This document shows, piece after piece, positions 19,827-54,151 of a DNA stretch of 64,000 nucleotides. The notes below the pieces were generated by a model. The model saw only the letters and a program-made list of their open reading frames with translations. It searched no databases and had not been told where the DNA came from. The stretch is from Bacteroidales bacterium (GTDB lineage: Bacteria > Bacteroidota > Bacteroidia > Bacteroidales > GCA-2748055). A program made the translations under genes and the position numbers. The first letter of the stretch is position 1, and every line of letters begins with the position of its first letter. Location: positions 6,569-70,568 of the forward strand of contig JBBDIE010000175.1 of the NCBI GenBank assembly GCA_040880545.1. Direction: 5' to 3'.

Positions 19827-20088
19827 CAGTTTGATATTAGTTACTGAGTGCTTGCAAGAAAATGTCAATAGCTGCGTTATGCTCGACTTCAAAACAGTCA
19901 TCGCAATCCCCTGTTAAAGAACTGGGCAGCCATTGCTCTTGACGTTTTCTTATCAAATACTACATCGTTTTATGAGTTTTCTTTCTAACACTACTTGTAA
20001 GTTTCAGTTAAATAATAAACTCTGTATTAAAACACTTATAAATCAATGCCATATTATTCTTTGTACAATGATGCCACCTTTGGCAATC

Positions 20089-20442: not shown

Positions 20443-20476
20443 ATCTTTTTAAAAAGTAGAAGTTAGTTTGGAACGA

Positions 20477-21613: not shown

Positions 21614-21705
21614 GTACTACTCATTTTTGGTCAATGATTTTTAACATACAATTTGATTAAAAACCTGGCCTTGAAACCTTGGGTCAATTTGATGAATCAA
21701 GTGGG

Positions 21706-22695: not shown

Positions 22696-22780
22696 GTTTT
22701 TTTCTTTATGTTTTTGACTTCCAGCACAAAGATGATTATTCTTAATGATTCATGCAACCATCTGAAATTATGAACTTTAT

Positions 22781-22835
22781 CGCAAAGGTTACCGCAAAGC
22801 TTTGCGGTAAATTAAAGATGTTACATAACATAAAA
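22781..22835. promoter_or_regulatory. Conserved bipartite palindromic element, copy 1 (candidate LacI-family operator plus second inverted repeat)
   Basis: Perfect 22-bp palindrome ttaccgcaaagctttgcggtaa (22789-22810), preceded by half-site cgcaaagg. 10 nt after GCGG comes atgtta-ca-taacat (22818-22831). About 95 bp upstream of the gme start. Confidence 0.5.
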
Positions 22836-22871
22836 GTCAATATTTATCGCATTATTCATAACCTACGTAAA

Positions 22872-25124
22872 CTACTCTTCAACGGTAAATCGCCAGATTT
22901 TTCCTTTGATTTTTTTTGTTCCCTGGATTACGTCCACCCGCCAAAAGTACGTTTCACAAAAATTCAGTTGATCCATTTCCAGAATATTGGAATCAAGGAC
23001 TCCCTGGTATTCATTACTTACGGGACTCGCTTCATTAACCGCTTTGTAACTATTTCCAAAGTACACTTCATGGCTGTCAGCTTTATATCCTTCTAACCAC
23101 ATTAAATCAGCATCTATATCAATTGAAATGGCTACGTTTGGTGGTATCGGATTAGAAGCTTGTTGTGATTGTCGTCCAGGAATCCAGTAATGTCCATTAT
23201 TAGTTTCGTATGGACCGATATCTGGTAAAACATTCCCTGTTTTTCCTGTAATTCCATCTATATAATAGCCTGCATCGTTTAATCTACTCTCTGTGGATAA
23301 TCGGAAATCCAGATTATCAGGATCACGGAGCTGCGACCTTACGTCACCGGTCCAGTTATTGGAATGTTTGCCGGGTAATCCATTTGAAGGGGATCTCAAA
23401 TTACTGGATATTTGGCCTGCCAGGTTATTCCTGGTAATACTGTTATCATTTTCTCCCGGATGATCAATTCCCGGCCCCCATCCCTGGTAATTAAAACCTT
23501 TCAGTGGATCTTTCGGGACCGGGTTTCCAACTGCAGAACGTATGGCTATATCATTCCTTAAATTGTCAAAGGAAAGATTGTGATACACTAACTGAGAATC
23601 TCCCTTTACATACATGGACCTGGTATCCCATACTACATTGTGGTGAATTGTACCTCCATGGGGAAAATCCCTGGCGCCTGCCAGGTATCCGATAAAAGAT
23701 CCGTCGAAACGTACCCCGTATTTCGGATCATCATCAAAACGACTAGCCTGGGCTGATTCATGTAACCAATTATATCTGATTACGGTTCCCGGTTGCGCCG
23801 ATCCACTGACCTGAATAAGCGCTCCATCTGATTGCAGGTACCCAATATCGAAAATATTATTATATTCTATCAGGTTTGCGGGACCGGATCTGTATCCAAC
23901 AGAGGCCCCTCCGGTATGGATCGTATTCCTACGAAATATAGTTTCGACCCCTTCTCCTCCATCTACAGTTACAGCATCTCCAACACAGCTGTAATTGATC
24001 TCATGGAAATAGCAATTTTCTATCAGGTTTCTTTCCCCCCTGATTTTCAGTCCTGTTCCATCGGTGTATGCAAACGTACAGTTCCGGAGTGTATTCTCTA
24101 TACCATCAATGGTTGTAACTTCTGGTTCCTCAGTAACCCCAAGCATTCTTTTGGAATAGCTCGGGTATTTAAAATCACAATCCTCTATGGAAACATGATT
24201 TGCGCTTTCGATATGAAATGTTGACCCAAAAAAGTGTAATCCTGATATTTTGAGATATTCGCTGTTTTCAAAATGCAGAGCATAAGTCAGTGTTTTGCCT
24301 CTGATATCCAGGTTTTCCGGCGATTCGTTATCAGATGGCCATATGTATAACTCCTTTGAGTCAGCCTGATACACCCATTCTGTGGCAGTATCCAACATGT
24401 TAAGGGAACCCTCAAAAAAGTACCATCCTGTCTCTTTTCTCATTTCCCAATAGACATCCTGTGCCAATCGATCCCAAAGATTTTTCTCATATGTAAATGT
24501 ATTGGATCCTTTCTTGTGACTGGTTACTCTTGTCGCAAAGGTATTCCATGCACCAATATTTAACATAACCAAAGCGTTGGTGAAGTCAACATCCGCTTGA
24601 GCCAGATCTCTGAAATCATGGTCATTGACCATTTTCCCATATTGCGATTGATCAGATTGATGGGCCCATGTTTTTTCCTGATCAAACATTGCCCCGTCCT
24701 TCCACTGTGCATTTGGCCAGCGGGCCGATATCATTGATTCGTTACCAACAAACAACTGCCAGATTTCATCGTTAAGACGAGTCTTAACGATATGTCCCTT
24801 ATGGGAATTCCAAACGCTTTTAATTTCCTTAGTACCATCAAGAATGACATGCTCATTATTAAAAGGGAGTATCGTAATTTGTTTATTTTCCAGACCTTTA
24901 AGATTCGAAATATGTACAGCTTCATGATATCTTCCTCCTCGCAGGTAACAAGTATCTCCTGCTTTTAATTGCTTCACAGCATGTTGGATCGTTTTAAATG
25001 GTTGCTCCAAACTTCCGGAGCCAGAATCGTCACCATTGGGGGCTACGTAATATTCCTTGCTATACAAATCGCTGGTGCCAACCAATATGATGCAGAGTAA
25101 AATAATTGAATACGACCTGGTCAT
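22872..25124 (-). CDS. Secreted right-handed parallel beta-helix protein (pectate-lyase-fold glycan-degrading enzyme candidate) with a C-terminal ~90-aa beta-sandwich-like domain
   Basis: Signal peptide. DUF1565-like start YYVAPNGDDSGSGSLEQPFKTIQHAVKQLKAGDTCYLRGGRY. Repeated beta-helix coils (NCTF..., NCYFH..., RNTIH...). C-terminal ...SHEVYFGNSYKAVNEA...TYFWRVDV...WRFTV. ATG at 25124 chosen. Confidence 0.7.
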   Translation of the reverse strand: MTRSYSIILLCIILVGTSDLYSKEYYVAPNGDDSGSGSLEQPFKTIQHAVKQLKAGDTCYLRGGRYHEAVHISNLKGLENKQITILPFNNEHVILDGTKEIKSVWNSHKGHIVKTRLNDEIWQLFVGNESMISARWPNAQWKDGAMFDQEKTWAHQSDQSQYGKMVNDHDFRDLAQADVDFTNALVMLNIGAWNTFATRVTSHKKGSNTFTYEKNLWDRLAQDVYWEMRKETGWYFFEGSLNMLDTATEWVYQADSKELYIWPSDNESPENLDIRGKTLTYALHFENSEYLKISGLHFFGSTFHIESANHVSIEDCDFKYPSYSKRMLGVTEEPEVTTIDGIENTLRNCTFAYTDGTGLKIRGERNLIENCYFHEINYSCVGDAVTVDGGEGVETIFRRNTIHTGGASVGYRSGPANLIEYNNIFDIGYLQSDGALIQVSGSAQPGTVIRYNWLHESAQASRFDDDPKYGVRFDGSFIGYLAGARDFPHGGTIHHNVVWDTRSMYVKGDSQLVYHNLSFDNLRNDIAIRSAVGNPVPKDPLKGFNYQGWGPGIDHPGENDNSITRNNLAGQISSNLRSPSNGLPGKHSNNWTGDVRSQLRDPDNLDFRLSTESRLNDAGYYIDGITGKTGNVLPDIGPYETNNGHYWIPGRQSQQASNPIPPNVAISIDIDADLMWLEGYKADSHEVYFGNSYKAVNEASPVSNEYQGVLDSNILEMDQLNFCETYFWRVDVIQGTKKIKGKIWRFTVEE

Positions 25125-25382
25125 AATTATATTTTTATTTGGTTTTATGCTAAAATTCAGACAACAGAACTCTAATTGAACTTTTTGGTTCATTTGCATT
25201 CCAAGGCTTTCCTGAATATTACATTGCGATAATTTAATCGCTGTGTAACTTAGAATTTTACTATTTTAAAATAAGAACTACCAAACACATTGATTGGAAT
25301 TTTCCGAGGGCTCAGCAGTTCTGATGTTAACTTGATTCGTTATATATTAATTGTCAATTTTTCTGAGAATAGATGGATATTG

Positions 25383-26909
25383 TTATTTCAGAATTAACTT
25401 TTGCGTTTCAGAATAACCTTCCCCCTTCATTCTCATGAGGTACATTCCATTTTCTAGATGTGTCAAATCTATTGTCTCTTTAAAGTAGTCGTTTGCCTGA
25501 AATTCTCTTGAGAGTATCTGGGCACCGGTGATACTAAATACTTCTAATCGTAATGTACCGATTTCATTTCCTGCGTATTCAATTGTTAAAATGCCCTGAC
25601 TGGGATTTGGATAAACTTGGGGTATAATTGAATGTGACAGCGGTATACTTGAAGTTCCTGTAAGTTGCCAACGTTGATCACCTAATTGAAGACCATCAGT
25701 GGCTGCTGTGGCAGATCTTAAATTCCTATCATATCCAAAATCAATATCGTTCAGGTCTTCCAATGCGTATTGATTTGGCGGAGACAGGGCTGCAATATCA
25801 AAATTGTTCTCAACCAGATACTGCCAGTATTCAAGATTAAGTGCCGGCGGACTGGTAAAATTAATTGCTTCACTAAAAAAATTAGTAGTATCAACCTGGG
25901 AATTTTCAATAAAAGCAAGGAAATTGGGAGGGGTCTCAGGATTGGCAGCAAGTACATCAGGGTCGGCGAAAATATTGGTACGTATATTGTACATTTCGTC
26001 AGATCTGAATTCTAACAATACATCTGAAATATCAGATTGTGTATGCCAATTATTGTTACTCAGATCGAAAGACCTCAGATTGTCATCCACCCCAATTGAA
26101 TCAACTGTAAAGAGCACATCGTGACTACCCGCCACTGCCAGGTATGCAAAATTATAGAATATATTATTTGTTACAATAGCCTTAACAGTCATTCCCAAAT
26201 CAAAATAGACATCATTTAAATAATTGGATTGATAATATGTATTGTGACTGAAGTTAAGCACATTTGTAACACTTGCCATTCTTAGGAAAAGCGGTCCGTC
26301 ACAATTATAAAAAGTAGTATTTTCAATGGATAAAGTATCCTGCGGCCTGGCAAGTGTATTGATGATGGAAGGAAAGCCCGGGTCCTCAAATACCAGACCA
26401 TTAATAAAAACTGAATTTGTCACATAAACTTTACTGCCATTACTTGTACGAATAAAGTCCTTTCCAACAAATTCGAAAACACAATCATCGACATTTAATC
26501 TCAGATCATTGTCTGCGAGCCGGATAGCTTGTACCAAAACGGTTGAATCCAGCGCTTTTTGATTAAACTTCAGTCCTTCCACTACTAGGTGTCCCGTTAC
26601 TTCGAAGTGTCTTTTGTAACTGTCATCTATGCCTACAATTACAGGCCGTGCACCATCTCCTTGCTCTGCCCTGATATGGAGCGTATTATCCAGGGAAGAA
26701 ATCTTATTGTTCAATACATAAGTACCTCCTCTTCGTAACTCAAAGATGGTGTTACCAGGATTATCTTCACTGTCAATAGCTATGTTAAGCGCACCTGCCT
26801 CACCTTCCAGATCCGGTTCTACAACTATTACCGTTTTTTGCCCAAAGGCTGGCAGGCACATTAAAAACAGTCCCATTGTTAAAAGCATGTAAATTTTTTT
26901 CATAATCAT
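25383..26909 (-). CDS. T9SS-sorted secreted protein with a beta-helix-like body
   Basis: Signal peptide MKKIYMLLTMGLFLMCLPAFGQ. C-terminal VYPNPSQGILTIEY...LEVFSITGAQIL...IDLTHLENGMYLMRMKGEGYSETQKLILK matches the type A Por/T9SS sorting domain pattern. Confidence 0.75.
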   Translation of the reverse strand: MIMKKIYMLLTMGLFLMCLPAFGQKTVIVVEPDLEGEAGALNIAIDSEDNPGNTIFELRRGGTYVLNNKISSLDNTLHIRAEQGDGARPVIVGIDDSYKRHFEVTGHLVVEGLKFNQKALDSTVLVQAIRLADNDLRLNVDDCVFEFVGKDFIRTSNGSKVYVTNSVFINGLVFEDPGFPSIINTLARPQDTLSIENTTFYNCDGPLFLRMASVTNVLNFSHNTYYQSNYLNDVYFDLGMTVKAIVTNNIFYNFAYLAVAGSHDVLFTVDSIGVDDNLRSFDLSNNNWHTQSDISDVLLEFRSDEMYNIRTNIFADPDVLAANPETPPNFLAFIENSQVDTTNFFSEAINFTSPPALNLEYWQYLVENNFDIAALSPPNQYALEDLNDIDFGYDRNLRSATAATDGLQLGDQRWQLTGTSSIPLSHSIIPQVYPNPSQGILTIEYAGNEIGTLRLEVFSITGAQILSREFQANDYFKETIDLTHLENGMYLMRMKGEGYSETQKLILK

Positions 26910-27115
26910 TTAGTTAAGTTTATAATCAAAGTCAAAAATGTCTGCATTGAATTTTTTACTTTTTAGTGGTTCAGTGTATATGTAGAATTCGCCTCCAATT
27001 TTTGAATAAATCCAGACTTAATATATTCGCGTGGATATATAGTTTTTGGAGCTGATTCATTATCAAATTTCGTTTATCTTTTCATTACTTACAACCTCAT
27101 TTTCAGTACTTTTCT

Positions 27116-27171
27116 CCGCAAAGCTTTGTGCAAAGCTTTGCGGAATTGAAAAGATGTTGAATAACATAAAA
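27116..27171. promoter_or_regulatory. Conserved bipartite palindromic element, copy 2
   Basis: ccgCAAAGCTTTGtgCAAAGCTTTGcgg (27116-27143). 10 nt later comes atgtt-gaat-aacat (27154-27167). About 205 bp upstream of the T9SS protein start. Confidence 0.5.
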
Positions 27172-27351
27172 ATGTAAAATGATTGATTTGATTTTTTATT
27201 GAATATTTTTATAGCATGACTGTATTCTGAGGGTAATGAAACAGGATTTATTTTAATAGAAGTAATGTAAAAAACCACCTGTTCCATAAAGTATTACAAA
27301 TACACTACCTTAACTACTTACCATAAAACAGGTCAGGGACCATCGACTACA

Positions 27352-28935
27352 TTATTTCCGGTTACCTTGGTGGTCCAGAAATATTTTGATGAAATTATTA
27401 TTTAATTCATCACTATCACCGTAATGATTCCGCAACTTTTCCAGTTTGATGTGAAGTGTTTCCCGTATGTCGGCATACACAGGATCTGAGTAAATGTTAT
27501 TCATTTCCATTGGATCAGTTTTCAGATCATACATCTCCCATTCGTCGATGTCATAATAGAAATGAATTAGCTTATATCGCTCAGTGGCGATGCCGTAGTG
27601 TCTCTTGACCATATGGTGGGATGGGTATTCATAATATGTATAATAAACGGCATCGCGCCACAAATCTGATTCGCCACTCACCAGTTTTCTGAAGGATTCC
27701 CCTTGCATATCTTCCGGGATTTCAATACCTGCATAATCCAAAAAGGTAGGGGCAAAGTCGAGATTTTGGACCAGCTTATCTATTTTGGTCCCTGGTTCAA
27801 TTTCTTTCGGGTAACGCATCAGCAACGGTGTTCGGAACGACTCTTCGTACATGAATCTTTTATCAAACCATCCATGTTCCCCCAGGTAAAATCCCTGATC
27901 AGAGGTGTAAACCACAATGGTATTTTCATCTAATCCAGCTTCCTTCAGGTAGTCAAGTACTTCTCCAATACCGTCGTCCACCGATTTTATGGTTCGAAGG
28001 TAATCTTTGATGTAGCGGTTATACTTCCAAAGTGAAAGTTCCCTGCCTTCAGGCATATTGGAGAGTAATTTTTGGTTTTTAGGCTCGTATGCTGCCATCC
28101 ACAGGGCACGCTGTTCTTCGTTCATGCGATTCAGATGTCTGATCAGGCTTGTTGTATCACCATCGGGATTGACCAGCAGTTTGAAATCCAGTCCCCATCG
28201 GGCGTGACCATCAATTAACATCTCCTGCTCCTTTGCAGCGGTCCCCCGATTTTTATAATCGTCAAAGAAATTGGCCGGAGGATCAAAGATCACATCGTCG
28301 TATAGTGTCAGGTATTTAGGTGCAGGTTGCCAGTTTCGATGTGGTGCCTTGTGGTGATAAAGCAGACAAAATGGTTTGTCATGATCGCGTTTATTTTTCA
28401 GCCAGTCAATTGTTTTCTCTGTAATTATTTCGGTACAATACCCCTCAATTCGAATCTCTTTACCATCAATTAGAAAATCAGGGTTATAATATTCCCCCTG
28501 ACCGGGAAGAACCATAGAATAATCAAATCCCTGGGGAATACCATCCATGTGAATTTTCCCAATCATTGCTGTTTGATAGCCATTAGCCTGCAATATTTTC
28601 GGGAAATTATCCTGGTCCCAGTTAAAAGGCTGTTTGTTATCCACTTTTCCGTTAACAAAGCTGTGTTTGCCTGTTAACAATACTGCACGGCTCGGTGCAC
28701 AAATTGAGTTTGTAACTGAAGCCCGTGTAAAAATGGCCCCTTCTTTTGCCAGCCTGTCAATATTTGGTGTTTCATTTAAACCATGACCATATGCACTAAT
28801 CGCCTGGTAGGCATGATCATCACTCATAATAAACAAAATATTGGGAGGTTCAGTTTTATTCTGTTGCTGAGTACAACTGAGAATTCCCATTCCTGTTGTT
28901 ATTAGGACAATGGATTTTAGAATGTACTGGTTCAT
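27352..28935 (-). CDS. Sulfatase, S1 family (Cys-type, formylglycine-dependent)
   Basis: Signal/lipobox (...GILSC). NILFIMSDDH metal-binding start. SICAPSRAVLLTGK (C-x-P-x-R). Confidence 0.9.
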   Translation of the reverse strand: MNQYILKSIVLITTGMGILSCTQQQNKTEPPNILFIMSDDHAYQAISAYGHGLNETPNIDRLAKEGAIFTRASVTNSICAPSRAVLLTGKHSFVNGKVDNKQPFNWDQDNFPKILQANGYQTAMIGKIHMDGIPQGFDYSMVLPGQGEYYNPDFLIDGKEIRIEGYCTEIITEKTIDWLKNKRDHDKPFCLLYHHKAPHRNWQPAPKYLTLYDDVIFDPPANFFDDYKNRGTAAKEQEMLIDGHARWGLDFKLLVNPDGDTTSLIRHLNRMNEEQRALWMAAYEPKNQKLLSNMPEGRELSLWKYNRYIKDYLRTIKSVDDGIGEVLDYLKEAGLDENTIVVYTSDQGFYLGEHGWFDKRFMYEESFRTPLLMRYPKEIEPGTKIDKLVQNLDFAPTFLDYAGIEIPEDMQGESFRKLVSGESDLWRDAVYYTYYEYPSHHMVKRHYGIATERYKLIHFYYDIDEWEMYDLKTDPMEMNNIYSDPVYADIRETLHIKLEKLRNHYGDSDELNNNFIKIFLDHQGNRK

Positions 28936-29056
28936 TATCTGGTTTTTTTAGGTTTGCTCATTCAAATAGTAGTGGAAATTATTCTTCTGGCACCAATTTC
29001 ATTCAAATTCAGGACTATATGATAAAGAATTACATATTCACTTTCACCGTAATGGT

Positions 29057-30427
29057 TTAATGGTTTTCTATTCTTTTACCGGTCCATCGTGTGAATTTAT
29101 CAGGTGTAGGTTGTTGGGGGATTTCATCATTAAATTTAACGATCCAATTATCCAGTATTGTGCGCATCTCATTTAGCTGGTTGGAATAATCTGAATTTTC
29201 GGCTAGATTATTAAACTGATAAGGATCGTTTTTCAAATCATATAACTCTTCCGCAGTGCGGGGTTCAATGAAACAATCCAGTTGGAATTCATTCAACTCA
29301 CCAGCATGGTACAGTTTTATCATTTCCTGGTAGGTAATACTGTTGACTGCATCAGCAGGTGGTGAAGCGTTTAGCTCCGGATAGGCGTTGCGTATGTAGA
29401 GATAATCGTGGGTTCTTATTGCACGTTCATGCGCCTGGTAGTCATGCCAGTTATGCTCCGAAGCTATGTATTCCCTTCCATTGGTTGTATAATCTTCCAA
29501 AACCGGCACAAACGATAACCCCTGGTATGATTCAGAAATACCAGCATCAGCAAGTTCGCATAGGGTTGGTGCAATATCAATGGAGCTAATCAGTACATCT
29601 GTTGTCCCTTTCCTGAGTTTCGCGGGCCAACGGACTATAAAAGGTGTCTTAATGCCGCTGTCATATAATCGTGTTTTGGCACGGGGAAATGGCATTCCGT
29701 TGTCACTCATATATATCACCATTGTTTCTTCATCAACACCTTGCCGTTTAAGTTCATTCATTACTTGTCCAAGGTAATCGTCGAGCCGTGATATTTCATC
29801 ATAATACATGGCCAGATCTTTCCTGGTTGAGTCATTATCAGGCAAAAATGGAGGAACGATTACATCTTCCGGGAGATGGGGTTCCGGAATAATATTTTCA
29901 ATGTATGGGCGATGGGGGTCCGAGGCGGCCAGCCATAGAAAGAAAGGTTTATCATTGGGCCTGTTTTGCAATGCTTCCACCCAATATTCACATCCACTTG
30001 GCTTTCCTCCGTAAATGGTATCGAATTCCGGCCGCTTAGGACCAATGTGATATTTCCCCGCCACCGCAGTGTAATATCCAACTTTCTGTAATTCTCCTGC
30101 GAACAACAACTGATCTGCAGGTAGCGGCATATGAAGTTCAGGTGCGCTGGTACTGTGCGGATAACGACCTGTTAAAATACTACAGCGACTGGGGCTACAG
30201 GAACTGGTAGTCAGAAAGGCATTGTTGAAAACTACTCCTTCTTCAGCCAGCTTGTTGATATTTGGTGTTTTTATGGTATTGTTACCATAGGCCCCGTTAT
30301 CGCTCCATGCCGCATCATCTGCAATAATAATAACAAAATTGGGCTGTTTCCGTTCTTCCGGTTTTGGATCACCACAGGAAATCAGGGGCAATAATGCTAT
30401 TGTGCCAATAAATGACAAAGCTTTCAT
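29057..30427 (-). CDS. Sulfatase, S1 family (Cys-type)
   Basis: MKALSFIGTIALLPLISC lipobox (ATG at 30427; the longer alternative starts at 30463). NFVIIIADDA. SSCSPSRCSILTGR. Confidence 0.9.
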   Translation of the reverse strand: MKALSFIGTIALLPLISCGDPKPEERKQPNFVIIIADDAAWSDNGAYGNNTIKTPNINKLAEEGVVFNNAFLTTSSCSPSRCSILTGRYPHSTSAPELHMPLPADQLLFAGELQKVGYYTAVAGKYHIGPKRPEFDTIYGGKPSGCEYWVEALQNRPNDKPFFLWLAASDPHRPYIENIIPEPHLPEDVIVPPFLPDNDSTRKDLAMYYDEISRLDDYLGQVMNELKRQGVDEETMVIYMSDNGMPFPRAKTRLYDSGIKTPFIVRWPAKLRKGTTDVLISSIDIAPTLCELADAGISESYQGLSFVPVLEDYTTNGREYIASEHNWHDYQAHERAIRTHDYLYIRNAYPELNASPPADAVNSITYQEMIKLYHAGELNEFQLDCFIEPRTAEELYDLKNDPYQFNNLAENSDYSNQLNEMRTILDNWIVKFNDEIPQQPTPDKFTRWTGKRIENH

Positions 30428-30534
30428 CTTTAGTTGATTACTGTAAGCAGGATGATAGTTCATAATTCTTTTATTTAGTCGTTTAAATATCCTTATTGTT
30501 CTGTTTTTGGTTTAAATATGTAGTTTCAGTGTAC

Positions 30535-31836
30535 TCAAAACACAAAATCTAAACTTATTCCTGCAGTATCCAACTGGCTCTTGATGGTTTTTGTCTGCCC
30601 CATGGCAGTAACTGTGATATCATAATCACCTAAAAATCCACGTAGATTATACTTTCCATTTGCATCAGTTTCTCCGGCAAGATCGGTCCACCATTGGTTA
30701 AAAACAAGGTCCAACCATGCCTCACCTGCCGGTTTAATGGTCCAGTCTGAATTCCAAAGCGTTGTATTGTTGGCACCTCCTCCCCAGATTTGCCACATGA
30801 CAATACCAGAAACAGCGGGGTGACTATAAGCAATGGTCATCACATCGTGCAAATATTCAGCTTGAAGCTGCTGATCAGCAACATTTATATCAAATTCGGT
30901 TAGCTGAAGGTTAGGCACCAGTTCCGCAAATCTGTCCAGCCTTTCATAAATTTTATCCATACTGATAAGATCGCTCTCTTGTTTAAAATGACTCATGAAA
31001 CCAATACCATCCGGTGTACCACCATATTCAAGAAGCTTTCTGATTTGTGCTATATACTTGTCCTGGCGCGATCCATCACCCGGTAAAATACTGCCTTCGT
31101 TTACCCAAAATTCCACACCGGGAGGAGCATGTTCACGGGCATGTTTGATAACGTCTGCGAAAAATGATGGACCAAAAAGGTGGTCGTAGCCCAGATGGTC
31201 AGATATATCAGTTACAATGTGATTGATAGCATCCCATTCTGAAATACGATTTCCCGCCCAGGTTACCATCTCCTCAATATACTGGAAGGCGATCTCTTTT
31301 AGCTCATTTGTGTCCGCAGGCATTACATCTGGCTGTCCACGTCTGTCCTCATCTTCAATCTGAATGCGAGCCCACATTAAATAGTGGCCACGAACTTCAA
31401 TTCCCCGTTCTTTCAACCAGTCGAGCTGAATATCTCCCACCTCGTTGTTATGGGCTCCAACAACTAGTTTGTTGAAATATTTCTCCACAAGTTCCCGGCA
31501 AAGACGGGCATCTTCAGGATTAGGTTTATCTTCCCATCTTGACTGACCCATCAATGCACCAAAACCAAAAGCATGTTTAGACATCTTTACCGCAACTTCA
31601 GCATCAGGCACAGGTTCTCCTGAAATATCTGAAACAGTAATTTTTATGTCTGATTTGCGATGTATCTCAATTCTCTCTTTTGCAGATTTTAACCATTCCG
31701 GATCATTGTCAACCATATTGGTGGTGTCGTTTTTGATAGTGTCGTTGGCAACGATGGGCTCTTTGAGAGTAGGAGGAGTGGTCTTTTCACAGGACACCAT
31801 CGCTAAAGAGACCATTGCCATGATAATATAATTCAT
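30535..31836 (-). CDS. GH10-like (beta/alpha)8 glycoside hydrolase-fold lipoprotein, atypical active site, paralogue A
   Basis: Lipobox (AMVSC). GH10 landmarks in order: HAFGFG, VRGHYLMW, WDAINH (in place of WDVVNE), WVNEG, GIGFMSHF, LQLTEFDI (nucleophile motif), IVMWQIW. C-terminal Ig-like tail. Confidence 0.7.
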   Translation of the reverse strand: MNYIIMAMVSLAMVSCEKTTPPTLKEPIVANDTIKNDTTNMVDNDPEWLKSAKERIEIHRKSDIKITVSDISGEPVPDAEVAVKMSKHAFGFGALMGQSRWEDKPNPEDARLCRELVEKYFNKLVVGAHNNEVGDIQLDWLKERGIEVRGHYLMWARIQIEDEDRRGQPDVMPADTNELKEIAFQYIEEMVTWAGNRISEWDAINHIVTDISDHLGYDHLFGPSFFADVIKHAREHAPPGVEFWVNEGSILPGDGSRQDKYIAQIRKLLEYGGTPDGIGFMSHFKQESDLISMDKIYERLDRFAELVPNLQLTEFDINVADQQLQAEYLHDVMTIAYSHPAVSGIVMWQIWGGGANNTTLWNSDWTIKPAGEAWLDLVFNQWWTDLAGETDANGKYNLRGFLGDYDITVTAMGQTKTIKSQLDTAGISLDFVF

Positions 31837-31900
31837 ATCCTTAAATTAAATGTTCTGTATTCCTGTTTTGAAAATTATTAATTAAGAGGTTCTTTTTACA

Positions 31901-33199
31901 TTAAAACACAATATTTAAACTGGTCCCTTCGGGAAGAAGGTTACAATTCATCGTTTTAATTTCATTTTCCACTTGTATATGGATTTCATAATCACCTAAA
32001 AACCCACGTGCTTCAAATTGTCCTTCATTATTTGTTATTCCAGTCTCTTCTGTCCACCATTTATTATGAACCAGGTCTATCCAGGCTTCGCCTGCCGGTT
32101 TAATTGTCCAGTCTGAATTCCAGAGGACTCTATTATGTCCTTCAGATCCCCATATTTGCCAGACAGTAATTGAAGTTACAGCAGGATGGCTGAAAGCAAT
32201 ATTCATAACATCATGCAAGTATGATGCATGTAATTTTTCATCTTCAACATCTATATCTAATTCTGTTAATTGCAGATTAGGGACCAGTTCGGCAAATTTA
32301 TCCAACCGCTGATAAACTACCTCCATGCTAATCAGGTCATCCTCACCCTTGAAGTGGGACATGAACCCAATGCCGTCCGGCTTGGCGTTATATTTGACGA
32401 GGTTTTCAATTACTTCGTAATATAATTGTAACCTTTTTCCTTCACCCGGTAGAACCCCACCTTCATTTATCCACATCTCAACTTCAGGAGGGGCAAGCTC
32501 TCTGGCGAATTTAATTATATCAGCAAAAAATTCCTCCCCAAACAGGTGATCATATCCTACATGGTCGGAAACATTTGTAACGATATGATTGATTAAATTC
32601 CATTCAGTGATCCGATTATCGGCCCAGGTAATCATATCTTCGATACGTTGAAATGCCATTTTTCGCAGCTCTTCCTCATCATCAGGCCATTCATCAGGTT
32701 GGCCATACCGATTGCCAGGCTGAATACGTGCCCACATAAGATAATGACCCCGAACCTTTATGTTTCGCTCATTTAACCAATTTAATCCGAATTCGCTTAC
32801 GGGGTCATTCTCTCTTATAGCGGCTACTTTGTTAAAATAGGTTTCTACGATTTCTAAATGTTTCTGGGCATCCGTTGGATTTGGCTGGCCTTCAAATCTA
32901 CTGGTTCCTAACAATGATCCAAATTCAAAAGCATGCCGAATCATTTTTACCTCAACTTCTGCACCTTCAATTGGCTTTCCATTGTTATCCACAACATGAA
33001 TGGAAAGATCTGCTTTACGATGCAGTTCAATTCTCTCTTTTGCTGACTTCAGCCAGGCTGGATCGTCATTTATAGTACTGATTGTATCATTGTTTACTGA
33101 ATCATTACTGACTAGAGGTTGTTTCTCAACAGGAAGGGGTTCCTTTTCACAGGAGGCCATCGTAATAACTGTCAATGCAATTAAAATATAATTAATCAT
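31901..33199 (-). CDS. GH10-like (beta/alpha)8 glycoside hydrolase-fold lipoprotein, atypical active site, paralogue B
   Basis: Same architecture as paralogue A and clearly homologous along its whole length. HAFEFG, VRGHYLMW, WNLINH, WINEG, GIGFMSHF, LQLTELDI, ITVWQIW. Confidence 0.7.
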   Translation of the reverse strand: MINYILIALTVITMASCEKEPLPVEKQPLVSNDSVNNDTISTINDDPAWLKSAKERIELHRKADLSIHVVDNNGKPIEGAEVEVKMIRHAFEFGSLLGTSRFEGQPNPTDAQKHLEIVETYFNKVAAIRENDPVSEFGLNWLNERNIKVRGHYLMWARIQPGNRYGQPDEWPDDEEELRKMAFQRIEDMITWADNRITEWNLINHIVTNVSDHVGYDHLFGEEFFADIIKFARELAPPEVEMWINEGGVLPGEGKRLQLYYEVIENLVKYNAKPDGIGFMSHFKGEDDLISMEVVYQRLDKFAELVPNLQLTELDIDVEDEKLHASYLHDVMNIAFSHPAVTSITVWQIWGSEGHNRVLWNSDWTIKPAGEAWIDLVHNKWWTEETGITNNEGQFEARGFLGDYEIHIQVENEIKTMNCNLLPEGTSLNIVF

Positions 33200-33377
33200 T
33201 TTCTATTTATTGATTATTAATCAAGTCTGTCATACTTATCAAGCACTACATAGTTTTAAGAGTTTTCATTCTGACACTATAATTCGTTGTCTGTTTTCGA
33301 AGCCCTTTTAAATTTCTGCCTCGCCCAGATATACCATCTTGCTATATCAAAAAGGGCATGTTGGCAATCGATTTATA

Positions 33378-34724
33378 TTATTTGGTTTGCTGCTTATACT
33401 TTCCCATTTCAAGTTCCCATTCATCCAACAGGTTACGTAATTTCTCCACACTTTTGGTCCCTTGTTTGACCAAATTCCGGGTTTCACTTTCATCCGTCTT
33501 TAAATTAAATAGGTATTCTTCATCCTTAATCCTAAGATATTTCCAATCACCTTCTCTGACGGCCCACTGGTTATTATACCTCCAATAAAGTACTCTATCC
33601 TTGATCTCCTTATTCTTAAACAGGACCTGGGAGAAATCAGTTCCATCAAATACCAGATCGGTTTCAATACCGGCAATTGACAAAAATGTGGGCATGATAT
33701 CCATGCTAACAACATGAGAATTTGAAACGGTTCCCTCCTTGATTCTGGAAGGATACCATACAATTGCAGGAACACGGATACCTCCTTCCCACAGGCTGGT
33801 TTTATAACCATGTAAATTTCCACTACTTCCAACTTCCAACGGACCATTATCGGAACAAAACAAAACCATGGTATTGTTATCCAATCCAAGATCTTTCAAT
33901 TTTTGAAATACCCTGCCAATATTCTCATCCATTACTTCTATCATTTCCTTGTAAGCTACATCTTTATCAGGCCTTGAGCCATGAGCCACAAACTCTTTCC
34001 CGGGCAACCGTTCAGCTTCATCATTCCTGCCTTGAAACGGAAAGTGAGGAGCTTCATGTGGCAAATAGAGGAAAAATGGTTTGTCCCTGTTTTGTTCCAT
34101 AAAATCAAGTGCGTGATTAGTGATTAAATCTGTCACATATCCCTCTTCGTAAATTGAGTCTGTATTGTGCCACCAATCATGCAAGCCAATGCCATCACGA
34201 TGAGAAATATAATCCACATTACCACTTACATATCCATAAAATTCATCAAACCCATGGTTAACAGGATTATACTTTAATTCATACCCAAGGTGCCACTTTC
34301 CGAATATTCCTGTGGTATAACCATGCTCTTGAAATACTTCGCTGATAGTACGTTCATCGCTTGAGATTCCACCTGCATATCGTCTGGCCATCTGTGCGTA
34401 AATTACCCCTTCCAAACCTGCTCTTTGTGCATAATTACCTGTCATCAGACTTGCTCTTGTTGGGGTACAAACAGCGCCATTGGAATAATAGTTGGTAAAT
34501 CGTATACCTTCAGTCGCCATCTGGTCCAGAACTGGTGTTTTAATTTTTTCATTGCCATAGCAACCAATATCACCATATCCCAGATCATCAGCCATTATCA
34601 GGATGAAATTGGGAGGATACTTTTCAGGTTTCTTTTCGGCTGTTAGACACTGCTGCCCTGTAATTGCCATTGTCAATACTCCTCCCAGGAGTAAAGATTT
34701 TTTCGTGAATGATTTCATATGCAA
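33378..34724 (-). CDS. Sulfatase, S1 family (Cys-type, arylsulfatase A/GALNS-like)
   Basis: Signal peptide. NFILIMADDLGYGD. AVCTPTRASLMTGN. Confidence 0.9.
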   Translation of the reverse strand: MHMKSFTKKSLLLGGVLTMAITGQQCLTAEKKPEKYPPNFILIMADDLGYGDIGCYGNEKIKTPVLDQMATEGIRFTNYYSNGAVCTPTRASLMTGNYAQRAGLEGVIYAQMARRYAGGISSDERTISEVFQEHGYTTGIFGKWHLGYELKYNPVNHGFDEFYGYVSGNVDYISHRDGIGLHDWWHNTDSIYEEGYVTDLITNHALDFMEQNRDKPFFLYLPHEAPHFPFQGRNDEAERLPGKEFVAHGSRPDKDVAYKEMIEVMDENIGRVFQKLKDLGLDNNTMVLFCSDNGPLEVGSSGNLHGYKTSLWEGGIRVPAIVWYPSRIKEGTVSNSHVVSMDIMPTFLSIAGIETDLVFDGTDFSQVLFKNKEIKDRVLYWRYNNQWAVREGDWKYLRIKDEEYLFNLKTDESETRNLVKQGTKSVEKLRNLLDEWELEMGKYKQQTK

Positions 34725-34809
34725 AAATTATTAATCAATAGATTTTTCCTTGATTCCAGCTTAGACAAAACAATATTACTATAACATAGCTATCATGGTA
34801 AAATTAGCA

Positions 34810-35625
34810 TCAATTAACTGTTTCATCCAAGGGAATACCCAGTTCCTTGTAAAGGCGTCTCCGTCCCGCTTTATCATTTTCGTGAATTTTATGTGCGTAT
34901 TCTGCCACCTGGATCGCAACTCTTCGCGGAACAACGACGACTCCGTCTCCGTCGGCAACAATTACATCTCCCGGACATACCAATACTCCGCCAATTTCAA
35001 CCGGGCGATTTACAGATTCCACTTCATTACGTCCGGGTCGAATGCCACGACCCTTTTTTTTCAGGTATAACGGGATCTTCTGCAAAGCTATTTCATCAGT
35101 GTCCCTTGCTCCGGCATCAGTCACAACGCCCACTGCACCCAACTTCACCCAGGCCATAATGTTCTTTGAGCCAATGGTTCCAATATCTTTGTCTTCCACA
35201 TCATCCATAACCAACACAGTACCAGGAGTAATAACATTCTCCATTGACCTTTTTGAAGTTGGGGGAAGAAAAGAGGATCTCCAGTCAACATATTCTTCCT
35301 CTGGTTCGTTTCGATCCGGGCGTTGTGTTGGTACAAGCCGCACAGTTGCAGCGATACCTGTCATAATGTGGCTCATATCATCAATATTTACCCAGGCAGG
35401 ATGAATTTCAGGATTAACAAGACCTGTGTTAGGCAGGCCCACCTGGTCCAATCCGTCAGAAACATCTGTCAGACGTAAACCATGGTATAGTTTAATCAGT
35501 TCAGCATTCTCACTGGCAGAATAGGTTTGTGATTCAATTAAGTTGACTCCATCTTTGGTTTGACTATACATGGAGATGTAACACACTATGAATAAAGACA
35601 CAAAACAGATTATTTTCATTTTCAT
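34810..35625 (-). CDS. RraA/HMG-aldolase family protein carrying an N-terminal signal peptide
   Basis: MKMKIICFVSLFIVCYISMYSQT Sec-type leader. RraA-fold motifs: DVSDGLDQVG, GTVLVMDD, GSKNIMAWVKLGAVGVVTDAGARD, PGDVIVADGDGVVVVP. Confidence 0.7.
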   Translation of the reverse strand: MKMKIICFVSLFIVCYISMYSQTKDGVNLIESQTYSASENAELIKLYHGLRLTDVSDGLDQVGLPNTGLVNPEIHPAWVNIDDMSHIMTGIAATVRLVPTQRPDRNEPEEEYVDWRSSFLPPTSKRSMENVITPGTVLVMDDVEDKDIGTIGSKNIMAWVKLGAVGVVTDAGARDTDEIALQKIPLYLKKKGRGIRPGRNEVESVNRPVEIGGVLVCPGDVIVADGDGVVVVPRRVAIQVAEYAHKIHENDKAGRRRLYKELGIPLDETVN

Positions 35626-35700
35626 TATATTCAGTTATCAGGAAATTAATTTTTTAGCGATTGGCACATGCATGATTATTCAGATTAATTGTAATCTGAA

Positions 35701-37275
35701 TCAATCTGGTATTTTATTGGAAAATGTTAATTTAAGCACATAAGCCATCTCGTCAGATTGTTTTTCACACATGGTTATATGCATACCTGAATTATTCTGT
35801 TTGTATTTTAATGATATACTTTGATCTTTATCAGCAAGCAATAACGCTACGTTCTGTAGTGATTGAATATTAAACTCATTGGATGACAGTGAATTAATAG
35901 TTAATGTTTTATTATCACCCGGCCATCCGAGGATGATTGCATAGAGCACTTTATTGTCTTTACTCCTGGTGAAACGTATATCCCTGGCCGTACCTTGCGA
36001 GGGTGCCTCGAATCCCACAACTTTATTTTCATTTGTATGACGGTGACCCAGCCCCATCTTCGTTGGCCCTTCTCCATATTTGACCCAGGTACGGGTATTG
36101 TAAACTGCTTCCCCGTATTTTCCGAGCCAGTCACCTAAAGAGAGAAGTATCTCTTTTTGCTCCTGCGGTATGCTGCCGTCAGCTTTTGGAGAAATATTGA
36201 GCAGAAGATTACCATTTTTACTTACACGGTCGAGAAAGCCATGAAGTACTTCTGTGGGAGAATAATAGCGAATACCTTCCGTGTAACACCAACTTGACCG
36301 GCTGATTGCATCATCGGTTAACCAGTAATAATCCACCAGATCTGCTGGACCACCACGTTCATAGTCCAGCACAGCAACATCGTTATTTAGTGCATCTTTG
36401 TAAGTAGCTACAACTTCCTTGTTCCATTGCTCGGCCTTGTTATAATAATATGCAAGAAATTCAAGTAATACAGGTTCTCGGATGGCTGTAAGATTAAAAT
36501 CCTGCCAAATTATATCCGGTTGATAATTATCTATAATTTCCTTGTGTTTATCAAGCCAGAGTTTTTCATTTGCTTTTTCAGTAAGCTGTGCATAAAGAAT
36601 TTGCAATTCAGGATCATTCGTTTCAGGAGCATGGTCATAGAATTGCCTGGGAGTCTCAACTCGTCTTGTCTGCGTAAATCCGTGAAATGCATGATGCATG
36701 GAAAGTATGATCTTCATATCTTTTTCACGGATTGCCTGGGTCAGCAGTCCGACCAGGTCAAGTCCGGGCCCCTGGTTTTTGGCGTTCCATGGATTAACTT
36801 CGCTGTCCCACATTGAAAAGCCGTCATGATGTTCAGCAACAGGACCTGCAAACCTGGCACCGGATTTTGCAAAAAGATCCGCCCATTCATCAGGATCAAA
36901 ATTACCTCCCTCTGATTTTAATTTAGGGTGAAACTGAACGAAATTACCTTTTTTGTCCTCTGCGCCCGTAATGAAATAATGATAGGGCCATTCCTCAGGA
37001 TGACCGTAGGTTTCAATGTGATGTATATTTTCATCTGAGCCATCGATATACATTCTCCTGGGATACCATTCATTGCCAAAGGCTGGAACAGAATATACTC
37101 CCCAGTGGAAATAGATTCCAAATTTAGCATCACGAAACCATTCAGGTATGTTATAATGCGTACTTATCGATTCCCGGTTAGCTTCATATCGAACCTCTGT
37201 TTGTGCCGAAATAGCGGTTGTTGCCACAATAAATGATCCAATCATCAAATAAAAAATTATTATTTTGTTTTTCAT
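35701..37275 (-). CDS. Alpha-L-fucosidase, GH29
   Basis: Signal peptide. WFRDAKFGIYFHWGVYSVPAFGNEWYPRRMY, GPVAEHHDGFSMWDS, PDIIWQDF. Confidence 0.9.
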   Translation of the reverse strand: MKNKIIIFYLMIGSFIVATTAISAQTEVRYEANRESISTHYNIPEWFRDAKFGIYFHWGVYSVPAFGNEWYPRRMYIDGSDENIHHIETYGHPEEWPYHYFITGAEDKKGNFVQFHPKLKSEGGNFDPDEWADLFAKSGARFAGPVAEHHDGFSMWDSEVNPWNAKNQGPGLDLVGLLTQAIREKDMKIILSMHHAFHGFTQTRRVETPRQFYDHAPETNDPELQILYAQLTEKANEKLWLDKHKEIIDNYQPDIIWQDFNLTAIREPVLLEFLAYYYNKAEQWNKEVVATYKDALNNDVAVLDYERGGPADLVDYYWLTDDAISRSSWCYTEGIRYYSPTEVLHGFLDRVSKNGNLLLNISPKADGSIPQEQKEILLSLGDWLGKYGEAVYNTRTWVKYGEGPTKMGLGHRHTNENKVVGFEAPSQGTARDIRFTRSKDNKVLYAIILGWPGDNKTLTINSLSSNEFNIQSLQNVALLLADKDQSISLKYKQNNSGMHITMCEKQSDEMAYVLKLTFSNKIPD

Positions 37276-37369
37276 GATTTTAGCGTTGCTAAATATTTAA
37301 TATTTCAGAGGCGATGTATATTGATGACGCATTACTGATTTTTATATGTTCTCTTTATAAATCATTGAC

Positions 37370-39190
37370 TTAAAGTTTTTCTATATATGTATAATAAGAG
37401 GGATAAATTCTGTTTTTATCATCCGTCAAAAAGACTTCCATGTCATATTTTCCTTCTGGAATGGTTATCTCAAAAACTACCTCAGTATCATTGTTTTTGA
37501 TGGATTTAGTTTCTTTTATGTCTGCTAGGTAAATTGAAGCATTAATAAAATTTACATATTTACTGGCGGGCATGGGATTATTCACTTCCACTGTATTTAC
37601 CCTGGCTTGTACATCCTCATTAATAGATAATCCGCTTGATCTTGGATAGCGACACAGACTTATTTTGTAGCGCCCACCCTTAGAGAATTCAACTTTTAGT
37701 ATTCCATTGCCCTGATCGGCTTCCAAAGCGCCATACTGGTGCCAGGCTCGTCCAAGGAAACCGGTATGCATATCGTGTGCACTGATCCTAACCGGATTTT
37801 CATAACTCGTACCAACTTCGATATATGCATGTTTCTCGCCGACTCCTTCATTCATGATAGATTCCCACCATTTATTATATGCTTGAGATAATCTGTTAAC
37901 AATCTCGGGATGCAGGTAAGCAATATTATTTGATTGTTTTCTGTCTTGTTCTATATTATATAATTCTTCACCGTTAATTAACCTCCAGGTTTCATCCATT
38001 ACGGAATAGTTTCTGAATTTCACCAGATTTTGTACCCGCTGGTTGTCCACAACCAATATCCGTTCTTCCCATTTATCATATCCTTCTATGAATAATGGAG
38101 CAAGACTTCTGCCATCGATAGGTTTCTTTTCTTCAAATTTCAATTCACATAATTCCACCAGTGTAGGAAGAATATCAATATGGGCAGTCAATTTATCGAT
38201 ATCTTTTCCTCCCAGAACATTTCCTGCGGGCCATCGTATGAAAAACGGGACCCGATGGCCTCCATCGTATATACTTGCTTTCTTGCCGCGTAATCCTCCA
38301 TCATGACCAAACATTTTACCATCTTTATTCTCAACACCAAAGGCTGTTCCATTATCGGTCATAAATATTAAAATGGTATTTTCTCTGATATCCAGCTGTT
38401 CCAGTTTATTTTCCAATCGTTGAAAATTATCATCGATGTTGGTAATCATGCCATAGAACCGTTTTTGGTTTTCCAGTATTGTCTCATCATTTTTATAAAG
38501 ATTGTAATATTCCAGGGGCACATGTAAAGGAGCGTGTGGTGCATTGGTGGATATGTAACAAAAGAATGGTTGGTCTTTATTTTTTTCAATGAATTTTAAT
38601 GCTTCATTAAAAAAGACATCTGTACAATAACCTTCAAATTTCCGAGGTGTGCCATTGTGCCAATAAGTATCATCAAAATAGTCATTCCCCCAATAATCCG
38701 GCCCTTGTGTAATCCCTCCTCCACCATGCCGGACTACTTCCTGAAATCCACGGTCCTCTGGTCTGAACGGATAATTATCACCCAGGTGCCATTTCCCAAA
38801 CATACCTGTTATGTAATCGTTTTCAGAAAAAATCTCGGCAATGATTTTCTCATCTCTGAATAGCTGGGACCTACCGGCAATAGTATGATGTGTGTTTGTT
38901 CGATTGGTATATCTGCCTGTCATCAAAGCTCCACGAGTGGGGGCACATGTAGGACTGACATGATAATTGGTAAATCTTACTGAATTCTCATAAAACATGT
39001 CCAGATTTGGTGTTTGAATAATATGATTTCCATGTACCCCCAAATCGCCATATCCCTGATCATCAGTGATAACGAATATTACATTTGGTTGTGGAGTCAC
39101 TACCTCTTTTGATCCTTGATTGCCGCAACTGACCAAGGGGATTAATGCGATTAAAGTGAAATTGATTAATATTGTATATCTCATTATCAT
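37370..39190 (-). CDS. Sulfatase, S1 family (Cys-type) with an extra C-terminal beta-sandwich-like domain
   Basis: Lipobox (IPLVSC). NVIFVITDDQGYGD. PTCAPTRGALMTGR. 606 aa. Confidence 0.9.
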   Translation of the reverse strand: MIMRYTILINFTLIALIPLVSCGNQGSKEVVTPQPNVIFVITDDQGYGDLGVHGNHIIQTPNLDMFYENSVRFTNYHVSPTCAPTRGALMTGRYTNRTNTHHTIAGRSQLFRDEKIIAEIFSENDYITGMFGKWHLGDNYPFRPEDRGFQEVVRHGGGGITQGPDYWGNDYFDDTYWHNGTPRKFEGYCTDVFFNEALKFIEKNKDQPFFCYISTNAPHAPLHVPLEYYNLYKNDETILENQKRFYGMITNIDDNFQRLENKLEQLDIRENTILIFMTDNGTAFGVENKDGKMFGHDGGLRGKKASIYDGGHRVPFFIRWPAGNVLGGKDIDKLTAHIDILPTLVELCELKFEEKKPIDGRSLAPLFIEGYDKWEERILVVDNQRVQNLVKFRNYSVMDETWRLINGEELYNIEQDRKQSNNIAYLHPEIVNRLSQAYNKWWESIMNEGVGEKHAYIEVGTSYENPVRISAHDMHTGFLGRAWHQYGALEADQGNGILKVEFSKGGRYKISLCRYPRSSGLSINEDVQARVNTVEVNNPMPASKYVNFINASIYLADIKETKSIKNNDTEVVFEITIPEGKYDMEVFLTDDKNRIYPSYYTYIEKL

Positions 39191-39261
39191 CTTGTTAAGT
39201 GTTAATTTTTATCAAAACAGATTTTCCCTTTTCATTAAATCAAGTTACTTCTTTGCGAATT

Positions 39262-40818: not shown

Positions 40819-40857
40819 TTCTTAAATTTAATTTTGATCATAATTTATTTCTGTACA

Positions 40858-42483: not shown

Positions 42484-42659
42484 ACTAATCCTTTAAATAT
42501 TTCAGATCCGGCCGATATACCATTACAGCCAAAGTATTAATGGAGTAATGAAGGTCCGGTATATCTAAGGTTCAATTGAGAACCTCATTAATGGGGTGAA
42601 TTTATTCATCACTACTCGCTTTGATTCCACTGGAATATGCCTGTTTAAGAATAATGAAT

Positions 42660-43748: not shown

Positions 43749-43773
43749 AATCGTAGATTTTCAAACCATAGTT

Positions 43774-45348: not shown

Positions 45349-45353
45349 CTGAA

Positions 45354-54141: not shown

Positions 54142-54151
54142 AGCTCAACAA

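Follow-up and report, generated by a model that had tools for sequence, protein, structure and literature searches.

What do two adjacent lipoprotein genes encode if their products keep the barrel of a xylanase but carry a histidine where its general acid/base should be a glutamate? The question is raised by a 64,000-nucleotide stretch of DNA from a Bacteroidales bacterium (assembly GCA_040880545.1, contig JBBDIE010000175.1, positions 6,569 to 70,568 of the forward strand), referred to here at its full length as the window. Two tandem paralogues in it, A (30535..31836) and B (31901..33199), both on the reverse strand, are related to family 10 of the glycoside hydrolases (GH10) and read N-H at the end of strand β4 in place of the canonical N-E. 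We found here that they belong to a large His-type branch of GH10, and we propose with moderate confidence that they are active, extracytoplasmic retaining glycoside hydrolases which would use a Glu-His dyad as acid/base on a substrate other than xylan.

Results

Two GH10-derived proteins with histidine at the acid/base position

Paralogue A is a protein of 433 residues, in which a His-type GH10-derived barrel is followed by a C-terminal β-sandwich. Paralogue B has 432 residues and the same architecture, and is 58% identical to A over its full length. In a Pfam search of the open reading frames, the GH10 profile (PF00331, Glyco_hydro_10) matched A with 90.7 bits and B with 88.8 bits (E 1e-25; curated cut-off 22.1 bits), the match spanning only profile positions 60-308 of 311 in both. 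NCBIfam holds no specific model for either protein and returned just a far-sub-threshold xylanase/feruloyl-esterase match. The closest solved relative of A is the GH10 xylanase XynA (PDB 7D88, E 1.9e-32 by HMMER over residues 42-412); in the alignment, 'wdaiNHiv' lies under 'wdvnNEmm' and 'ltEfd' under 'vtEyd', and the only columns that differ between 7D88 and its inactive double mutant 7D89 (E182A/E280A) are those of His206 and Glu314 of A. An AlphaFold2 model of A (pLDDT 91.5, pTM 0.87; 112 homologues as input) puts His206 right after β4 (200-205), Glu314 inside β7 (310-317) and Glu247 at the end of strand 242-248. The best 50 matches of this model in a Foldseek search of the PDB are all GH10 structures or designs on a GH10 scaffold, headed by AcXyn10A (8B73), then XynA (7D88/7D89), then classical GH10 xylanases. 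(The copies of the PDB that were searched held sequences as of 2026 and folds to April 2026.) A and B thus fall within GH10 by sequence and fold. They hold its profile similarity, its (β/α)8 barrel and its β7 nucleophile Glu (T-E-x-D), whereas the β4 acid/base Glu (N-E) and the β2 E-N-x-x-K-W glycone (-2/-1) motif are missing.

An earlier note on this DNA, made from the letters alone, had suggested that both proteins derive from GH10 and that His takes the acid/base position. Both suggestions are borne out, the former by the profile score, the predicted fold and the Foldseek matches, and the latter by the 7D88/7D89 columns and by the placement of His206 directly after β4. Its reading of the β4 motifs and of the His206 codon was also correct: His206 of A, aligned with E182 of 7D88, lies in WDAINH (CAC, 31219..31221), and its counterpart His205 of B in WNLINH (CAT, 32585..32587; these and the following codons are all on the reverse strand). 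The GH10 landmarks that it had listed for both copies need some correction. VRGHYLMW, GIGFMSHF and LQLTEFDI/LQLTELDI do occur in A and B, but FGFG is restricted to A (B has FEFG) and VWQIW to B (A has MWQIW). The β7 nucleophile is Glu314 in A (LQLTEFDI, 30895..30897; aligned with E280 of 7D88) and Glu313 in B (LQLTELDI, 32261..32263). At the end of β5 stands a second glutamate, Glu247 in A (WVNEG, 31096..31098) and Glu246 in B (WINEG, 32462..32464), which comparison with homologues marks as a candidate, either to pair with the His in a dyad or to be an acid/base that has moved. Within GIGFMSHF, Met281 of A (30994..30996) and Met280 of B (32360..32362) stand in place of the β6 Gln of canonical GH10, and an alignment places a shortened β2-α2 segment at residues 123-135 of A (31432..31470).

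The N-termini of both proteins consist of a short hydrophobic stretch followed, at residues 13-17, by a lipobox-like MVSC in A (Cys16, 31789..31791) or MASC in B (Cys17, 33149..33151), and from this sequence pattern A and B look like lipoproteins. Two close relatives, P0002 and P0004, bear sorting domains of the type IX secretion system (T9SS). These two are nearer to A than B is, and a third, P0005, is nearer to B, which implies that the A/B duplication predates the divergence of several carriers and that both copies have been retained. That one of the pair is a recent duplicate or a decaying copy was considered and ruled out, as separate orthologues of A and B exist elsewhere and all conserved catalytic-site residues are present in both.

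A large His-type clade with a single origin

The substitution is not peculiar to the window. The nearest 120 homologues read N-H in 117 cases and N-E in three, and all 120 keep both the T-E-x-D nucleophile and the Asn before the His. Asn205, His151, Trp155, His283, Trp348 and Trp351 (numbering of A) are invariant or almost so, and the catalytic-site residues persist down to the roughly 35% identity that separates the more distant clade members. When 234 catalytic domains were placed in a neighbour-joining tree, a single branch led to all 129 His-type sequences, and Fitch parsimony requires one E-to-H change; the tree carries no support values, and its topology within the clade (the order of the two His subgroups described below) is not reliable. 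The substitution is thus family-wide and not a random inactivation, as the earlier note had surmised from the two diverged copies alone.

When 1.8 billion cluster representatives were searched with the profile, 2,984 clusters at 50% identity were returned (E<=1e-30), a count that takes in Glu-type relatives of the same architecture. Among GTDB genomes, scanned at one for each species, relatives were found in 372 stretches. Most of these belong to Planctomycetota, Verrucomicrobiota and Lentisphaerota/Victivallales, and the others to Desulfobacterota, Spirochaetota, Acidobacteriota, Armatimonadota and further groups; the samples were of marine, freshwater, groundwater and soil origin. Most members have about 600 residues and an extra N-terminal domain of some 180 residues, which in one of them gives a weak match to the carbohydrate-binding module CBM_4_9; A and B are short forms without this domain. 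A signal-like N-terminus is present in 61 of 81 complete His-type proteins. Automatic annotation names clade members 'endo-1,4-beta-xylanase', and GH10 is not mentioned in two key fucoidan papers. There is, then, a large His-type branch of GH10 that is undescribed in the literature searched, and both the clade and its signature are strongly supported. A clade this large is unlikely to consist of pseudo-enzymes. Two kinds of GH10 pairing were also seen: a protein of 1695 residues from the search of representatives (P0121) has two His-type GH10 domains, one with Gln and one with Met on β6, and two groundwater Spirochaetota loci (L023, 9335-13101; L085, 10001-13719) encode a His-type and a Glu-type GH10 side by side, both of the architecture of about 610 residues and adjoining a GntR/LacI-type regulator. 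The latter are a natural pair suited to side-by-side biochemical comparison.

Residue changes that accompany the histidine

The exchange on β4 is one of several. Two sets of 95 sequences that share one architecture, a His-type and a Glu-type set, were compared; at the β4 position they have His and Glu, respectively, in 100% of cases. In the β6 motif G-I-G-x-[M/Q]-x-H, Met is found in 98% of the His-type sequences against Gln in 98% of the Glu-type. The residue after the β5 N-[D/E] is Gly in 89% of the former and Tyr or Phe in the latter, and the acidic residue of this motif is Glu in 93 of 95 His-type sequences, whereas the Glu-type sequences have Asp in 72 and Glu in 23 of 95. Within the larger His-type set of the tree, 125 of 129 have the β5 Glu. 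In GH10 structures, the β5 Tyr lines the +1 subsite and the β6 Gln lies next to the acid/base, although a literature search for these roles in Cex gave no citable statement. It would therefore seem that the coordinated changes affect that side of the site where the aglycone and the acid/base are located. The -1 core, by comparison, is kept, since R-G-H-x-x-x-W, the Asn before the acid/base, His283, Asp316, Trp348 and Trp351 are common to both types.

Pirellulaceae and Verrucomicrobia have a second His subgroup, which differs from the His/Met forms in keeping both the β6 Gln and the β2 E-N-x-x-K-W. All 23 of these His/Gln sequences read W-[IM]-N-E-D on β5, so the β4 His and the Glu of the neighbouring strand β5 co-occur in both His subgroups. 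Representative motifs of the His/Gln subgroup are WDAVNHPV, WINEDQ and GIGNQAHF, with the -2 subsite motif kept, and in five of five Verrucomicrobiaceae loci (L037, L048, L054, L059, L064) a BD-FAE (acetyl/feruloyl esterase-type) gene follows immediately after. This hints that the substrate of the His/Gln subgroup is acylated and possibly xylan-like.

Loss of the β2 motif in the short forms

A further change marks the group that A and B form with the relatives nearest to them (P0002-P0025, 45-67% identity), which we call the short sub-clade. On β2, Glu-type relatives read F-N-x-x-v-x-E-N-x-l-K-W and the long His/Met forms F-N-K-v-x-x-E-x-G-x-R-W; in the short sub-clade about 17 residues are deleted and the entire motif is gone. 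This deletion explains why the PF00331 match in A and B begins at position 60, when in long-form His-type relatives it begins at position 5-9. In canonical GH10 enzymes the Glu, Asn and Lys of the β2 motif form the -2 subsite, and mutation of the Asn cripples activity (PMC5877695). Lacking the motif of the -2 xylose subsite, A and B cannot bind xylan in the canonical way. With this loop deleted and the aglycone-side residues altered, a new specificity, one of the two possibilities that the earlier note had put forward, is very likely.

Genomic context of the short sub-clade

We examined ten loci of the short sub-clade, the window included, and sulfatases, GH29/GH95 fucosidases or deoxy-hexose catabolic genes are present in eight of them. 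The context of P0007 has seven sulfatases, two GH29 genes, a PF07632 gene and a β-helix gene. P0006 is accompanied by a β-helix gene, rhaM and GH29; P0016 by GH29, a sulfatase and TonB-dependent receptors; P0019 by two sulfatases; P0023 by GH95 and a sulfatase; and P0020 by genes for a PF07632 protein, a GMC oxidoreductase, a PhoD-like phosphatase and a sulfatase. Around P0010 there is a deoxy-hexose catabolic set (RhaT, SDR, PF07632 and an MR_MLE dehydratase-type gene), while P0009 and P0011, from soil contigs, have a PhoD-type phosphatase gene directly upstream. A metagenome scan with the short-clade alignment found only relatives at <=45% identity and added no close contexts. Separately, PF07632 genes lie near short-clade genes in four of the ten contexts and PhoD-type phosphatase genes in three (loci L081, L133, L135, L088, L132), an association of a glycosidase-like protein with a phosphoesterase that stands beside the PF07632 protein and the purple acid phosphatase of the window.

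The locus around A and B

In the window, A and B lie in a polysaccharide-utilisation locus (PUL) of the Bacteroidota type (15714..63818) whose genes are almost all on the reverse strand. The pair is flanked by S1 sulfatase genes, one directly downstream of A (29057..30463, reverse strand; PF00884, E 1.1e-48) and one directly upstream of B (33378..34724, reverse strand; PF00884, E 1.3e-65). The locus encodes a LacI-family regulator, two SusC/SusD pairs, three GH29 fucosidases and nine S1 sulfatases, together with two β-helix proteins, a PF07632 protein (Sde182 nucleoside-hydrolase-like; 42660-43748, reverse strand), a purple acid phosphatase (45354-46700, reverse strand), an RraA-like protein, a T9SS-tailed protein without a recognisable catalytic domain, nucleoside diphosphate (NDP)-sugar genes and a major facilitator superfamily (MFS) transporter. 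This gene set fits a sulfated, fucose-rich glycan as the target.

The locus had seemed, in the earlier note, to lack any other endo-acting enzyme, and this view does not hold. The 728-residue product of 49982-52168 (reverse strand) is a GH141-like β-helix protein: it matches PDB 9RX2 (E 1.7e-156), an entry of almost identical length titled 'Parallel beta-helix repeat protein', and its N-terminus matches BT_1002, the founder of GH141 (E 2.9e-13). A literature search found no paper mentioning 9RX2. GH141 enzymes from a fucoidan cluster, described in 2025, were shown to be endo-1,4-α-L-fucanases (PMC12786026), and by sequence similarity the 49982-52168 product is likely to be an endo-fucanase. 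Two more proteins bear on the same point, the second β-helix protein (22872-25199) and a 508-residue protein with a C-terminal T9SS sorting domain (25383-26909, reverse strand). The first 430 or so residues of the latter have no Pfam or PDB sequence match, and this secreted product, encoded mid-way along the PUL, is a candidate for a new enzyme family.

Two further features of the locus were observed. Genes for a mannose-1-phosphate guanylyltransferase-like protein, a cytidylyltransferase-like protein and an NAD-dependent epimerase/dehydratase lie between GH29 and β-helix genes (17109-22695, reverse strand); such NDP-sugar genes are not usual in a PUL that is purely catabolic, and might reflect fucose salvage. 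At the low-coordinate edge of the PUL, a tRNA-Leu(CAG) gene (15523-15607, forward strand) has a PKD-domain gene on one side and the MFS transporter gene on the other.

Discussion

The indirect evidence available on chemistry and substrate leads us to the following model, in which we infer the catalytic competence of the proteins, the contact between His206 and Glu247 and the nature of the substrate. The β7 glutamate (Glu314 in A) would act as the nucleophile, as in other GH10 enzymes, and the β4 histidine (His206) would replace the canonical Glu as general acid/base, with Glu247 at the end of β5 (W[VI]NEG) orienting it and tuning its pKa in a Glu-His dyad. The aglycone side is rebuilt alongside, through the changes of the β5 aromatic residue to Gly and of the β6 Gln to Met, and the short sub-clade has additionally lost the β2 loop of the -2 xylose subsite. 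That these are active enzymes is favoured by the retention of the nucleophile and of the -1 core, the invariance of the His, the size of the clade and the secretion signals; the conservation of His, nucleophile and -1 residues throughout the clade points to a catalytic centre that is preserved and not decaying. Because the aglycone side is rebuilt and the -2 subsite loop lost, the substrate is presumably not β-1,4-xylan. The core -1 residues and the β4/β7 geometry are kept, however, and the bond cleaved would therefore most likely be equatorial, of the β-D type or stereochemically equivalent. The likeliest target would be a non-fucosyl, β-linked element of a sulfated fucose-rich glycan. It could form a branch or be inserted in the backbone, and to judge from the genomic context this element is probably anionic or sulfate-flanked. 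A precedent for His at this position comes from the Streptomyces olivaceoviridis xylanase SoXyn10A: in the N127S/E128H mutant, His serves as acid only when held by a hydrogen-bond partner, deglycosylation needs azide, and the authors ascribed the poor performance to the absence of a partner with a negative charge (PMC8056907). The β5 Glu specific to the natural clade would supply just such a partner.

Several observations weigh against this model. The same engineered enzymes show that His is not automatically competent, as SoXyn10A E128H is almost dead and N127S/E128H depends on azide (PMC8056907). The covariation counts are not phylogenetically independent, since the His arose once, even if the correlations hold in sequences only about 35% identical, and two members of the short sub-clade, P0007 and P0019, carry Asp in place of Glu on β5. 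No paper on a natural His-type GH10 was found in a full-text literature search, and searches of the PDB by sequence and by fold turned up no solved His-type structure. In the wider clade, a sulfatase gene lies within 10 kb in only about 11 of 80 loci, the neighbours are heterogeneous, and GH29 is found in none of the 80. On these counts a sulfatase/fucosidase link for the entire His clade, which we had considered, was rejected; the fucose link belongs to the short sub-clade and not to the His clade as a whole.

Other explanations must be set against this model, and the nearest to it is that the acid/base has been relocated, such that the β5 Glu247 is itself the general acid/base and the His binds an anionic +1 group (sulfate or carboxylate) or shapes the aglycone site. 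The earlier note had named a Glu in W[VI]NEG at the acid/base position as something that would refute its reading. The prevalence of the β5 Glu in both His subgroups of the clade, the resemblance of the β5 N-E to the canonical β4 N-E, and the near-inactivity of a canonical GH10 enzyme with E128H would all agree with this. But the 23 of 95 Glu-type sequences that pair a β5 Glu with an intact β4 Glu argue that a β5 Glu by itself makes no acid/base, and the His is conserved more strictly than the β5 Glu, which P0007 and P0019 replace by Asp; we therefore regard relocation as rather unlikely. A departure from simple hydrolysis would be an anion-dependent retaining enzyme, a phosphorylase or transglycosylase in which a neutral or cationic His in place of the carboxylate lets an anionic acceptor or nucleophile (phosphate, sulfate or a carboxylate-bearing sugar) attack the glycosyl-enzyme. 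The engineered N127S/E128H enzyme needs azide for turnover, phosphorylase activity has been reported for NagZ-type enzymes of GH3 that have a His acid/base, and PhoD-type or purple acid phosphatases are encoded beside short-clade members, including that at 45354-46700 in the window. The phosphatase association extends to just three or four of the ten contexts, however, sugar-1-phosphate-handling genes are not evident next to these genes, and phosphorylases are typically cytoplasmic, whereas A, B and their relatives are lipoproteins or secreted, all of which makes this reading improbable.

It is also conceivable, and was the alternative offered in the earlier note, that A and B are non-catalytic glycan-binding lipoproteins, akin to surface glycan-binding proteins, here on an inactivated barrel; they do lack the canonical acid/base, and they are surface-type lipoproteins in a SusC/D locus. 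We consider this very improbable: down to about 35% identity there is no variation in the nucleophile, the Asn that precedes the His, His283, Asp316 or the -1 tryptophans, the His does not vary either, as one would expect it to in a relaxed site, and many members have separate CBM-like N-terminal domains that would be redundant in a lectin. The least weight attaches, in our view, to the idea that A and B are endo-α-L-fucanases for a sulfated fucan backbone. The sulfatase/GH29 locus and the recurrent fucose-related contexts of the sub-clade would suit such a role, and GH107 enzymes use a His acid/base. The GH107 precedent invoked in the earlier note is nevertheless not directly transferable, and the role unlikely, because A and B keep the GH10 β4/β7 layout, and with it the -1 residues of β-D-glycanases, when the known barrel families that act on fucose, GH29, GH107, GH151 and GH168, all place the nucleophile on β4 and the acid/base on β6 (PMC12534559). 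Moreover, the locus already has the GH141-like protein, from a family with proven endo-fucanases, and His-type relatives are widespread in soil and freshwater genomes without fucose genes.

If the Glu-His dyad operates as proposed, the implications would reach beyond this locus. Clan GH-A is the textbook example of a two-glutamate retaining machinery, and a His lineage with a co-evolved Glu would illustrate the re-tuning of which this machinery is capable. We suggest, tentatively, that the His-type clade may be the first lineage of clan GH-A in nature whose retaining mechanism relies on a Glu-His dyad instead of a Glu acid/base, an adaptation of the GH10 barrel to polyanionic (sulfated or uronic) glycans, and that its short sub-clade would provide a missing debranching or endo activity which removes β-linked non-fucose elements from sulfated fucans. 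Were this so, a functionally distinct, misannotated class deserving its own CAZy subfamily or family would take in hundreds to thousands of the proteins that databases name 'endo-1,4-beta-xylanases' in Planctomycetota, Verrucomicrobiota, Lentisphaerota and Bacteroidota. Correcting the label would remove an inflation from estimates of xylan degradation that metagenomic surveys give for Planctomycetota and Verrucomicrobiota. Few marine polymers are as recalcitrant as fucoidan and the sulfated fucose-rich glycans related to it, and the set of enzymes known to degrade them is incomplete; as a conserved secreted pair between sulfatases, with non-canonical chemistry, A and B are a concrete candidate for a missing step. 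The clade would also be the natural counterpart of the engineered His-xylanases that are used for glycosyl-azide synthesis.

Among known systems, the endo-β-1,4-xylanases XynA of Bacillus sp. KW1 (7D88/7D89) and AcXyn10A of Acetivibrio clariflavus (8B73) are the closest to A and B, both in sequence (E 1.9e-32 and 2.7e-19) and in structure (Foldseek E 3e-27 to 3e-30, TM 0.69-0.85). They share an N-terminal helix and strand, the C-terminal β-sandwich, T-E-x-D, the Asn before the acid/base, R-G-H and G-x-G-x-x-x-H. Yet the identity is just 23-25%, and where the two xylanases have a Glu acid/base, N-D-Y on β5, Gln on β6 and an intact F-N-x-x-x-x-E-N-x-x-K-W, A and B have His, N-E-G, Met and a deletion of the β2 motif. 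Fsa02490Xyn, a relative of AcXyn10A, likewise has two conserved Glu residues (PMC12485897). The fucan-degrading families stand further away. GH107 endo-fucoidanases act on sulfated fucans and cleave axial α-L-fucosidic bonds, and with the GH29/GH151/GH168 group they are retaining (β/α)8 barrels, so that GH107 is not, as the earlier note had it, of a different fold family. The difference lies in the layout of the site, with a nucleophile Asp on β4 and the acid/base on β6 (PMC12534559) in place of the β4 His and β7 Glu of A and B. Neither GH107/GH29-type structures nor those of GH168, which do exist, were among the PDB sequence and fold matches listed for A. GH174 and GH187, described as β-sheet folds (PMC12534559), are set apart from the barrel of A and B by that description.

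For the proposed chemistry, the closest likeness is in the SoXyn10A mutants E128H and N127S/E128H ('SEA'), which have His at the exact GH10 acid/base position, as in the clade (PMC8056907). These are laboratory-made enzymes of drastically reduced activity, and in SEA the Asn has been replaced and the partner of the His is an uncharged Ser; the natural clade keeps the Asn and has the β5 Glu together with the Gln-to-Met and Tyr-to-Gly changes. A charged partner is found in the GH3 enzyme NagZ, a retaining enzyme with an Asp-His catalytic dyad (BsNagZ; cited in PMC8056907). NagZ belongs to an unrelated family with a different fold arrangement, is cytoplasmic, acts on GlcNAc and has no sequence relationship to A or B, but its carboxylate-paired His acid/base is a model for the mechanism that we propose for the His-type clade.

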